Origin: a virus
Lineage: Duplodnaviria > Heunggongvirae > Uroviricota > Caudoviricetes
Virus record (IMG/VR): IMGVR_UViG_2537562015_000012
Strand: one strand, 5' to 3'
DNA length: 18,580 nt
Shown: piece after piece, positions 3,001 through 6,000 of the stretch
Position numbering within the stretch: the first letter of the stretch is position 1
Layout: every line of letters starts with the position of its first letter
Program-made: the position numbers

Positions 3001-6000
3001 TCTGAAACTCTACCCGGACGCGTTTAACGCCGCCTAACGGAGACTAAAAATGAACATCGAAAAAAGCAGATTAATTTCTGAGGCCGCCCCTCATCTGAAC
3101 GCCTCTCTGGGCACAATTAACGGTAATGAATTTGCCGCAATTGTCCCGGTTATTTCTGGTCATATAGGCGGGCGTGAAACCAATATTGTTAGCGCAAAAG
3201 CGTTACACAAAGCGTTGGGCGTGGGAAAAGACTTCTCTACATGGATCACTGATCGCATCTCTGAATATGACTTCACCATTGGGCACGATTACTCAGTCCA
3301 TAAAACAATTTCCCCAAATTTGGGGAAAAGCCCGAATGACGCGGCTTACAGCAAGATTAAGCAGTCTGGCAGACCCGGCAAAGACTATCTGTTAAGTGTC
3401 GGAATGGCGAAAGAACTGGCAATGATCGAACGCAATGATCAGGGTCGCGCTATCCGCCGTTATTTCATCCAGTGCGAGAAAGAATTACAGCGTAGCGTGC
3501 CTGAAATCGCCGCCCGCTATCGTCGCCAGCTAAAAGCCCGTATCAGTGCCGCAAACAACTTCAAGCCAATGTGCGATGCGCTGAATATGGCCCGTGCCGA
3601 GATGGGGAAAACGACGCAGCAACACCACTACACAAACGAGAGCAATATGATTTCTCGTATCGTTCTTGGTGGGCTAACTGCTAAGCAGTGGGCGCGGATA
3701 AATGGCTATTCTGGCGAACCTCGCGACCATATGAACGCAGAACAGCTTGAGCACCTCTCATATCTCGAAAGCACCAATATCACGTTAATTGATATGGGCA
3801 TGGAATATGAGCAGCGCAAAGGAGAACTCACCCGCCTGTCGCAACGCTGGCTCGCCAAGCGTCTGGAGGCGGTCCATGTTTAAGCCGACAGGAACACCAC
3901 AACCTCAAAAACGCTACAAAGATGCCCACGGAGCACTCGTTACTGTCGAAAGCGTGTCTCACAACCGAGTGACGTTTTATCGCGACGGGTATCAATCGCC
4001 ATGCGTACAACCGCTGGCACGTTTCATGAAGGAGTTCGCGGAGGTTAACAAATGCTAACCGCCCAGAAGAAGATATTTTCACTGGCTGGTATGTCGCCAA
4101 AATCCAGCAATATGACAGCAAAGTCAGACATTAATACAGCAGATACAAGCAAAGTTTATCATTTGCTGGTGGTAGGAGCGGATGCCTTAACTATGTCAGA
4201 AATTACGGTCGATGGTGTTAGCGTTGAGAAGGTCAGCGGCTATGCCAGAGAATTTCTGGTCGTAGATGGCTTTCTCTGCTCGTGTAGTGACTCCACAAAA
4301 ACCTTCGTCCACGCGCGTGACGTTAACGAAATGAGCGCGATGTACTGTGCTTCTGGTTCTTCCAATAGTGAGTTTTCGGAGTCCATAAAAAAGAGCTTGC
4401 CGTTATGCGGCAACACGGTTTATGGTTATAAGGCACCTCATAAAACGGGTGCCGGGATTGGCGTCCTAAAAATTCTGAAGGCGACATATGACGCGCCAAG
4501 CGTCTTTTTTTATGTCGTAGGTCTGACTCACCCATTTTTTGGGCGTTGGTGTATAATCCAGCGCCTTTGTCAATCAATGGTGGCTCAGGCGGGGGCTTCT
4601 TCGGAAGCGCCGGTATCCTTCAGAGCCGGTTACGCCAACCCTGTCTGGGCTACCACCAGCGAAATTGGCGTTTCCGGTGGTAGCGTAACCTGCTATCTGA
4701 AGGAGGCTGCCACATGCTGGCTACTACCCCTACCCAAAAAACGCAATTTATCTGGATTATCGCCGCAGTTCGCCGCGATTGCCCGACAATTACCGCCAAA
4801 ATTCATCATATTGCTGCCGAGTCTGAACGCGATGCTCGCCGTTCTCTGGTGCGCGATCACGTCTGCTTTTTTGCTGGTCGTATCCGCATGGAGGTGGCAC
4901 ATGATTAAAACCTACGATGTGCATATGGATCCCCTCGAACGCACAAGCCAGATCATCACACTGACAGAAGTGATTAACGACATTCTGGTGAGCAACTCTC
5001 CCTCACGAGACGAAAGACTGAAGGCGTTACTCGCGATATTGGATCTCGCCGTTCGTGACGTTCATTTCCTGCTGGAAGGTGGCGAAATGCCAGTAAAAAC
5101 GGGGGCAACCAATGAATAACTCAATTAATACCCCTCGCCTTACGTCCGCACTTCAATTAATCGAGCAAGCAGCGGCTGTCCTGGTTGCTGTCAGTCTTTC
5201 GGCTGAAGAAATGGACGCTGCTGATGTCGTGGATGCGATTAAAGCGTGCTCATCTTTGGTTAACGATGCCCGTGCAGAGCTGGTAATTCTTGGTGGTGAA
5301 AAATGAATATCAACTTAATTTATCGTCATCCGTGTGAGCTGGAAATTGAATCATTGCTGGGGCGCGAAGAGCCATATCCAGACACATTCACTCCCGCAGA
5401 TTGCGCGACTGAACGGCTTACCAGAGCGCGCACAGGTCTGGTTCATGTGATGAATGAGATTATTCCCTCGGTGGGAGGGGAACAGGCGACAGTAATCAAT
5501 AGCTGGCTACAAAAAGTTACCTCCCTGATAGATATCAGTTTAATCGATGTGGAGAGTGCGAAATGACCAACATCCAGCTCATTGAAGCGCAATGTCGCAT
5601 CGAACAGGTTCAGACTGTTTTAGGGTTCTGGCTTGAAGGGGCCAGCCCAAGCAACAGAGACAAGTTAATGATTGGCGCGGTTATGTCACTGCTCAATGGC
5701 GTACCAGAAGCTATTCAGGAAGCGGACGAATTGTTGGGCAAATATGAGTTACAGAATCATTCAGGCGAGGCGAAACATGAATAATTTCTTAACTTTCCAT
5801 GCAGAAGCAACGCCTGGCGGCGTAAACATCATGTACCGCAGCAACGATGGCATGACAGAACGCGTTGAGGCCGTCTCATATATTGATGCCGTAAATCGTC
5901 TGGATGCCGGGGATTATGACGATAAACCAGATGAAGGTATGTCAATACATCTCGCTATTGCCGATGGCGGCAACCAGGGATATTTCGATTACACATCACA

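Follow-up and report, generated by a model that had tools for sequence, protein, structure and literature searches.

The stretch of DNA analyzed here (18,580 nt, IMG/VR record IMGVR_UViG_2537562015_000012; hereafter the window) is an Escherichia coli chromosomal island adjoining yicC/rph, and the feature under study is a long open reading frame (ORF) at positions 4052–5119, which databases mostly report as a single "ash family protein." We consider it likely that this region constitutes the module for immunity and derepression in a satellite island of the P4 or phage-inducible chromosomal island (PICI) type, built like the eta/seqA/CI RNA/kil module of phage P4 and carrying its icd gene, the kil homolog, out of frame. 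It also seems somewhat probable that the window represents a widespread variant of this module in which a one-base offset uncouples the eta-like frame from kil/icd while that frame is still selected to stay open for 63 further codons, without constraint on the peptide. Under this interpretation, eta would act through the ribosomes that move along it, which bring about anti-termination and lift the antisense control, and not through its protein, and the "Ash" family of Pfam and RefSeq would largely be the shadow of RNA genes. The kind of system is known, and the variant with an out-of-frame kil/icd and an eta frame held open appears to be undescribed; we found no description of it in the literature searched, and the older P4 literature may note it. 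All positions are given in the coordinates of the window, and labels of the form L0xx denote related loci with which it was compared.

The long eta-like frame (4052–5119, + strand, 355 codons, ATG start) is tied to its neighbors at both ends. Its ATG overlaps the stop codon of a DUF4222 gene (3876–4058, + strand; Pfam DUF4222, E = 6e-25) in the sequence ATGCTAA (4052–4058), an operon layout that links it to the alpA-antA operon, and its own stop codon (TAA, 5117–5119) overlaps the next gene, which starts with ATG at 5112. When codon usage is scored as a log-likelihood, with the remaining long ORFs of the window as the training set, the score favors the long frame over 4052–4711 (+0.146 per codon, against −0.52 and −0.30 for the other frames), the icd frame over 4712–4900 (+0.278, against −0.159 for the long frame), and the long frame again over 4901–5116 (+0.254). 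This agrees with a first-pass annotation made from the sequence alone, which had placed switches of the coding signal at about 4712 and 4901 and had described the long ORF and a 64-codon ORF nested in another frame, both of which exist. Its list of rare codons over 4714–4900 also proved exact, with 10 rare codons among the 63 of the long frame (CTA three times, TTA three times, ATA, CGA, AGG, and GGA) and none among the 64 of the icd frame, and the ribosome-binding sites that it placed before ATG 4714 and ATG 4901 are where it put them.

That annotation had taken the ORF for a fusion of separate coding units, and this view holds for the two smaller genes, which are real, and not for the accidental loss of a stop codon by which it accounted for them. 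The icd/kil homolog (4714–4908, + strand, −1 frame of the long ORF) encodes 64 amino acids that match the NCBIfam family phage_ICD_like (NF033153) with 71.6 bits (cut-off 25; E = 3.9e-20), and is preceded by the Shine-Dalgarno sequence GAAGGAGG at 4699–4706, 7 nt before its ATG. Homologs of 63–65 amino acids occur in many Enterobacterales, and a ratio of nonsynonymous to synonymous polymorphism (pN/pS) of 0.17–0.32 indicates purifying selection on the gene. The separate 72-amino-acid gene (4901–5119, + strand, in the long-ORF frame) overlaps the icd stop by 8 nt and has its own GGAGG at 4890–4894, 6 nt before its ATG. Its pN/pS is 0.16–0.62, and it is annotated or called alone in loci where the long frame is broken (L006 and L043); stand-alone relatives of 66–76 amino acids (36–56% identity) are also found, some of them behind in-frame Ash-Icd ORFs. 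No match to its product was obtained in Pfam, NCBIfam, or PHROG searches. Icd and the 72-amino-acid protein would each be made from their own start site. A different gene of 59 amino acids (MRNYFRI...) follows icd in L011 (2688–2867), L022 (2685–2864), and the proteins P0030/P0107; its product ends in ...RITRVQEVAA, like the C-terminus of Icd (...GRIRLEVAA), and it may be a diverged tandem Icd-like paralog.

Upstream of icd, the long frame passes through two RNA genes. An isrK/P4 seqA-like element lies at 4433–4510 (+ strand; Rfam RF01394, full length, 60.5 bits, gathering score 50) and includes an intrinsic-terminator hairpin (4490–4504) with a T run (to 4511). It is followed by a C4/P4 CI-like antisense immunity RNA at 4573–4660 (+ strand; Rfam RF01695, full length, 79.9 bits, gathering score 45). 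Hairpin 2 of C4 carries a loop, UCCUUCAGA at 4616–4624, that is a perfect nine-nucleotide complement of UCUGAAGGA at 4696–4704, a downstream target that overlaps the icd Shine-Dalgarno in the junction region (4696–4713, + strand), and is also complementary to an upstream target, UCUGAAGG, at 4474–4481 inside isrK. Loop and target covary across related loci, with 12 different alleles, and this covariation provides strong comparative evidence for an RNA–RNA interaction that determines specificity. C4 precedes icd in all 40 Rfam-scanned loci that have an Ash-like stretch or a long upstream frame, irrespective of the frame class described below, and isrK is found besides C4 in 38 of those 40, L036 having C4 only. 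A possible internal promoter for the RNA genes, the putative counterpart of P4 PLE, may be located at 4397–4426 (+ strand; TTGCCG, 18 nt, TATGGT, then G4433); this candidate is a weak match and lies under the near-invariant "VYGY.AP" of the protein alignment. In comparison with L003, L005, and L043, islands that are otherwise 92–99.5% identical to the window, the RNA stretch (isrK, C4, and target; 4421–4711) has only ~68% identity. Because of this drop inside near-identical islands, the RNA stretch looks like an exchangeable cassette for immunity specificity, in which C4 loop and targets are swapped as a set.

The conserved "Ash domain" of the predicted protein is the translation of this RNA stretch. 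Residues 124–232 of the long ORF (nt 4421–4747) match Pfam PF10554 (Phage_ASH) with 117 bits, above the gathering score, and the matching region coincides with isrK, the spacer, C4, and the target. The invariant "DAPSVFF" of the Ash protein alignment corresponds to the isrK terminator hairpin and T run, and the data do not point to selection on a protein as the cause of this conservation, with a pN/pS of 0.5–0.9 over the RNAs. At 4421–4711, the RNA stretch makes up ~44% of the 660 nt that would otherwise be regarded as a first gene.

The same arrangement of matches is present in P4 itself (NC_001609, L059), where ORF 8168–8812(−) contains an isrK match at 8615–8692 (seqA) and a C4 match at 8420–8507 (CI RNA). 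Pfam Phage_ASH matches the obsolete "cI gene product" coding sequence over the CI RNA, and the C-terminal 65 amino acids of the ORF, after ..CAGGAGGCTGCCATC ATG, match phage_ICD_like (E = 7.8e-21); this ORF is eta, with kil nested inside it. Since the P4 cI ORF matches Phage_ASH and its C-terminal Kil is Icd-like, the window carries the P4 eta/CI RNA/kil module. The true P4 epsilon protein, which acts in helper derepression, belongs to PF25738, so PF10554 is not epsilon. A published survey of P4 satellites took PF10554 as its epsilon marker (PMC8628076), and because this family matches the cI ORF over the CI RNA (P4 7888–8584), the survey in effect detected the RNA region. The +1 frame over kil is open in P4 as well and runs into the epsilon gene, forming a 190-codon ORF at 7888–8460(−), which could be due to chance or be a trace of an alternative arrangement.

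Relatives of Icd were sought in one genome per species (GTDB), and for the 34 loci obtained we determined the frame of the upstream Ash similarity with respect to icd. The upstream frame runs on in frame with icd in 17 of the 34; one of these, L017, was missed by the Ash tblastn query and was counted by its continuous upstream ORF and its isrK and C4 matches. Nine of the 34 loci have the upstream frame +1 relative to icd, as in the window, and L036 is a further probable, unconfirmed case. The +1 arrangement occurs in Escherichia, Klebsiella, Pluralibacter, Leclercia, Symbiopectobacterium, Rosenbergiella, and Buttiauxella. In the seven others no Ash match is seen, and a larger protein has Icd as its C-terminal part. 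These loci (L031, L032, L034, L037, L038, L040, and L042, from Rosenbergiella, Tatumella, Pantoea, Erwinia, and a metagenome-assembled genome labeled Paenochrobactrum) have the Icd-like C-terminus on an in-frame ORF of 230–370 codons, with no ATG at the boundary in six of the seven (L042 being the exception). An Rfam scan of six of them gave neither C4 nor isrK, and the Icd domain may belong to a genuine larger protein in this group.

A stop in the upstream frame before the end of icd is found in none of the 34 loci, and none is found near 4700–4713 among ~40 related loci from more than 15 genera. The proposal of the first-pass annotation, that the first gene had lost its stop codon by an indel or substitution at 4700–4713, thus finds no support. 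The two frame classes differ by one base directly 5′ of the ATG, which reads ..GCC GCT ATG in the in-frame class and ..GCC AC ATG in the shifted class to which the window belongs. Long ORFs of 320–355 amino acids are conserved down to 46–50% identity and are fused to different downstream genes depending on the lineage: the C-terminal unit belongs to the orf72 family, to the MRNYFRI family, or is a 180-amino-acid or an integrase-like ORF, and no such unit is fused in L024 and L052. In every case the long frame ends at a start/stop overlap with GGAGG, either at the end of the next gene or 4–7 nt past the icd stop. In Buttiauxella izardii (L041, 2127–3563), the eta-like frame crosses icd into a 291-amino-acid tyrosine-recombinase-like gene, resulting in an ORF of 478 codons in which both Phage_ASH and Phage_integrase are matched by Pfam. 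Frameshifts of the eta-like ORF to the third frame or to the icd frame are seen in L051 (1501–2355) and in the proteins P0048, P0090, P0093, P0098, and P0109; such variants are rare, mostly singletons or small clusters, and may be sequencing errors or decaying copies.

The comparison of these sequences indicates that selection keeps the long frame open, which shares its phase with icd in arrangements such as P4 eta/kil and is displaced from it by one base in the others. With the same Icd protein encoded by random synonymous codons, the probability that the +1 frame is open is 0.09 for the window (0.02–0.14 across cases), so the open frame over icd exceeds chance. Stop gains and losses across icd were then counted only in sequences not retrieved via the long ORF; L045–L052 were left out, as was L036, which fails Pfam Ash and whose inclusion by its long +1 ORF would be circular. 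In the +1 frame, the shifted class has 0 such events in 208 substitutions and the in-frame class 14 in 307 (Fisher one-sided p = 6e-4; Poisson probability 8e-5), whereas the classes are alike in the third frame, used as a control (11 in 208 versus 14 in 307; p = 0.83). Shifted and in-frame classes are interleaved on the icd tree, and the ratio of third-position to first-plus-second-position changes in icd is similar in the two (1.21 versus 1.36).

Selection against stops extends over the RNA genes. Among 29 distinct relatives, none has a long-frame stop in the 300-nt segment that precedes icd and comprises isrK, the spacer, C4, and the target. Over the 1045 substitutions inferred for this segment, no stop event is seen in the long frame, whereas the other two frames have 58 and 73. 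The two halves of the segment are alike, and the long frame is free of stops as far as −365 or beyond. An open frame is not imposed by the RNAs, because in the P1-like phage D6, which likewise carries isrK, C4, and icd, two stops close it. The pN/pS of the long frame is 0.46–0.63 over the N-terminal 123 codons, 0.5–0.9 over the RNAs, and 1.7–3.5 over icd. At the level of sequence comparison, these results show that stops are selected against along the long frame and that the encoded peptide over icd is not constrained, which suggests that the act of translation, and not the protein, is the function. The first-pass annotation had named conserved 355-amino-acid orthologs across 4714–4900 as evidence that would speak for a single protein. 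Orthologs of 320–355 amino acids that span this segment do exist in E. coli, Klebsiella, and Pluralibacter, but the long-frame pN/pS over this segment makes their conservation there only a by-product of icd.

A mechanism for the module can be proposed from P4. There, a constitutive promoter inside eta yields a transcript that is terminated via CI/seqA interactions and matures into CI RNA. Kil is a shortened form of Eta, whose full-length version is translated solely off an upstream promoter, with coupling to the gene before it; eta translation prevents immunity-specific termination, so that the downstream genes are read (Sabbattini et al., 1995; Forti et al., 1999, J Bacteriol 181:5225; as summarised in PMC10111431). 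By analogy, a constitutive promoter inside the long ORF of the window would give untranslated transcripts that terminate prematurely and mature into the immunity RNA; this RNA would in turn block icd translation and let transcription terminate. Transcripts arriving from the upstream operon (alpA-antA-DUF4222) would be translated in the long frame from ATG 4052, and the passing ribosomes would override the terminator and the antisense pairing, leading to expression of the downstream replication genes. With icd in the −1 frame, ribosomes of the long frame would cross it out of frame, read through the next gene, and stop at the start/stop coupling junction at 5112–5119.

Several observations weigh against this interpretation or limit its reach. 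The constitutive internal promoter, a Rho-dependent terminator, and anti-termination through eta translation are features of the P4 module that are inferred for the island; the selection against stops agrees with them indirectly, and the segment 4397–4426 was not among the sites listed by a promoter consensus scan of the window. The N-terminal 123 codons have a pN/pS below 1, and some protein function is possible for this part. The trees were built from ~190 nt with Fitch counts, and the numbers of events could be distorted if modules have recombined. A natural allele, L043, has a long-frame stop inside icd that arose via a silent CTG to CTA change at Leu45 of Icd; the constraint on the open frame is therefore not absolute, although this allele is rare. 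Finally, P4 and L007 belong to the in-frame class, yet their +1 frame over kil is also open.

The same data can be read as those of a functional multi-domain protein of 355 amino acids, composed of a Bro-network "Ash" regulator, a hydrophobic linker, and a C-terminal Orf72 domain, that hosts the RNA genes and an overprinted icd. Such a protein would account for the strongly kept open frame and for the low pN/pS of its N-terminal part, and is consistent with the labeling of relatives as transcriptional regulators in PHROGs, with the treatment of P4 eta as a Bro-network gene (PMC10111431), and with a membrane-helix-like stretch encoded over icd (residues 261–279; mean Kyte-Doolittle hydropathy 2.29). 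Yet the supposed domain is isrK, C4, and target base for base: its invariant motifs are the terminator hairpin and RNA stems, and its variable residues are the covarying loop and target. The pN/pS above 1 in the long frame over icd, and a fused C-terminal unit that differs between lineages and is absent in L024 and L052, also argue against it, as does the low confidence of an AlphaFold2 model of the product (18-sequence alignment), which had a mean predicted local distance difference test score (pLDDT) of 31.6 and a predicted template modeling score (pTM) of 0.19 and is itself uninformative about a fold. We regard this explanation as unlikely. A related overprinting model, in which an Ash protein has acquired a selected C-terminal extension, was downgraded, given that the "Ash domain" is isrK plus C4 and that pN/pS gives no sign of peptide constraint.

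Two further explanations concern the junction itself. Three ordinary genes might have been fused by accident, through recent stop loss in the first of them, into a neutral or degenerate state, as could be suspected from the different codon usage of the three segments and from the occasional "pseudogene" call for the ash part by the NCBI Prokaryotic Genome Annotation Pipeline (PGAP). However, a stop at the junction is present in no relative, the arrangement is common to seven genera (Escherichia to Symbiopectobacterium), stops are depleted in the long frame relative to controls, and the PGAP "pseudogene," which breaks off at 4687 with no stop codon there, is an annotation device; accidental fusion is extremely unlikely. 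Alternatively, a programmed −1 ribosomal frameshift near the junction could join the upstream frame to icd and recreate a P4-like Eta-Kil fusion, a product that might be needed because the two are in one frame in P4 and in 17 of the 27 GTDB-scan loci with the RNA module. The long frame does contain the run CCC AAA AAA C at 4736–4745, but no X XXY YYZ heptamer precedes or spans the junction (4690–4716), the A run (4739–4744) is not conserved in the shifted class and lies after the icd start, and a frameshift would leave unexplained why the zero frame stays open for 63 more codons. Programmed frameshifting was rejected, and we consider it very unlikely.

For identical DNA, the commoner RefSeq call is the single 355-amino-acid "ash family protein" (WP_001419054), and the rarer one is an ash "pseudogene" together with a 64-amino-acid "host cell division inhibitor Icd-like protein" (WP_001395038). 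Icd is annotated in 1 of the 30 best matches and in 4 of ~25 full-length matches of a spread sample, much as the first-pass annotation had foreseen in expecting one long protein to be reported and the small gene missed. A call of 320–355 amino acids under the name "ash family protein" is found in thousands of enterobacterial genomes and masks a toxic gene of the Icd/Kil type, two regulatory RNA genes, and often one more small gene. The module is also a clean example of stop codons being selected against in a frame whose peptide is not under selection, and frames of this kind can lead astray both gene finders and dN/dS screens that look for overlapping genes. As an experiment of nature, the out-of-frame variant furthermore sets a need for eta to be translated apart from a need for the Eta/Kil protein, and with it the question of how P4 immunity is bypassed, which dates from the 1990s, becomes directly testable in E. 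coli strains such as ETEC H10407.

The island around the module is ordered as integrase, AlpA, an AntA-family gene (3050–3883, upstream of the long ORF), DUF4222, the long ORF, several small genes, a primase-helicase (6392–8743), and late-type genes, and this is the layout of a P4/PICI-type satellite. Positions 3800–5400 are 100% identical to strain FORC_031 and others and 99.3% identical to ETEC H10407. A gene resembling the P22 injectosome DNA/protein translocase (10647–12002; Pfam Inj_translocase, E = 2.5e-73) is followed by a 698-amino-acid ORF without a Pfam match (11987–14083), the pair being cargo in a satellite-type island. The far end of the window carries an IS1 transposase (14328–14831), a PerC-family activator (16767–17054), and a gene with a Bro-N domain (17744–18580), whereas in FORC_031 the ejection-protein gene has IS3 fragments and a group II intron on its downstream side. 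The distal part of the island is thus variable, since FORC_031 differs there while being identical over 3800–5400.

Among known systems, the module resembles that of P4 in several respects. In both, the start of the long ORF precedes the RNA promoter and is tied by coupling to the gene before it; the ORF encloses an isrK/seqA-like element and a C4/CI RNA that is complementary to sites on either side of itself; and a gene of ~65 codons of the Icd/Kil family follows a conserved ..GAGGCUGCC..AUG, with replication genes downstream. It differs in that kil is nested in the eta frame in P4, whereas icd of the window is in the −1 frame after a junction that is one base shorter, and the eta-like frame passes over icd in a different phase to end beyond the gene that follows. 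Moreover, the Icd of the window is identical to Kil at only 24 of 64 positions, and its upstream partner is DUF4222, where that of P4 is the alpA homolog itself. C4 and isrK are also present in the "Bro" genes of PICIs (PMC10111431).

A second point of comparison is offered by the P1 group of phages. The immI operon of P1 and P7 is reportedly composed of the c4 antisense RNA, icd, and ant, in this order. P1 Icd targets FtsZ. The C4 RNA of the window, as in immI, is placed immediately before icd, and its loop is a complement of the ribosome-binding site of that gene. In the P1-like phage D6, isrK, C4, and icd follow one another as in the window, but the closed frame over its RNAs leaves this phage with no eta-like ORF. 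In P1 an antirepressor gene follows icd, while the window has the 72-amino-acid gene in this position and its AntA gene upstream.

In phage SfV, which also has C4, an ORF of this kind crosses the RNAs and continues into an unrelated C-terminus. The isrK-orf45-anrP region of Salmonella Gifsy-1 provides a case in which translation across such an RNA has been studied: the isrK small RNA has a leaky terminator, and translated orf45 overlaps the C4-like RNA STnc1160, its translation being needed for the downstream gene by coupling (PMC4825925). The window shares with Gifsy-1 a conserved AUG at the 5′ end of C4 (4577–4579), which is in the long frame and matches the position of the orf45 start. The two differ in extent, as orf45 starts after isrK and stops before anrP, with no icd, whereas the open frame of the window reaches from 380 nt before isrK through icd.

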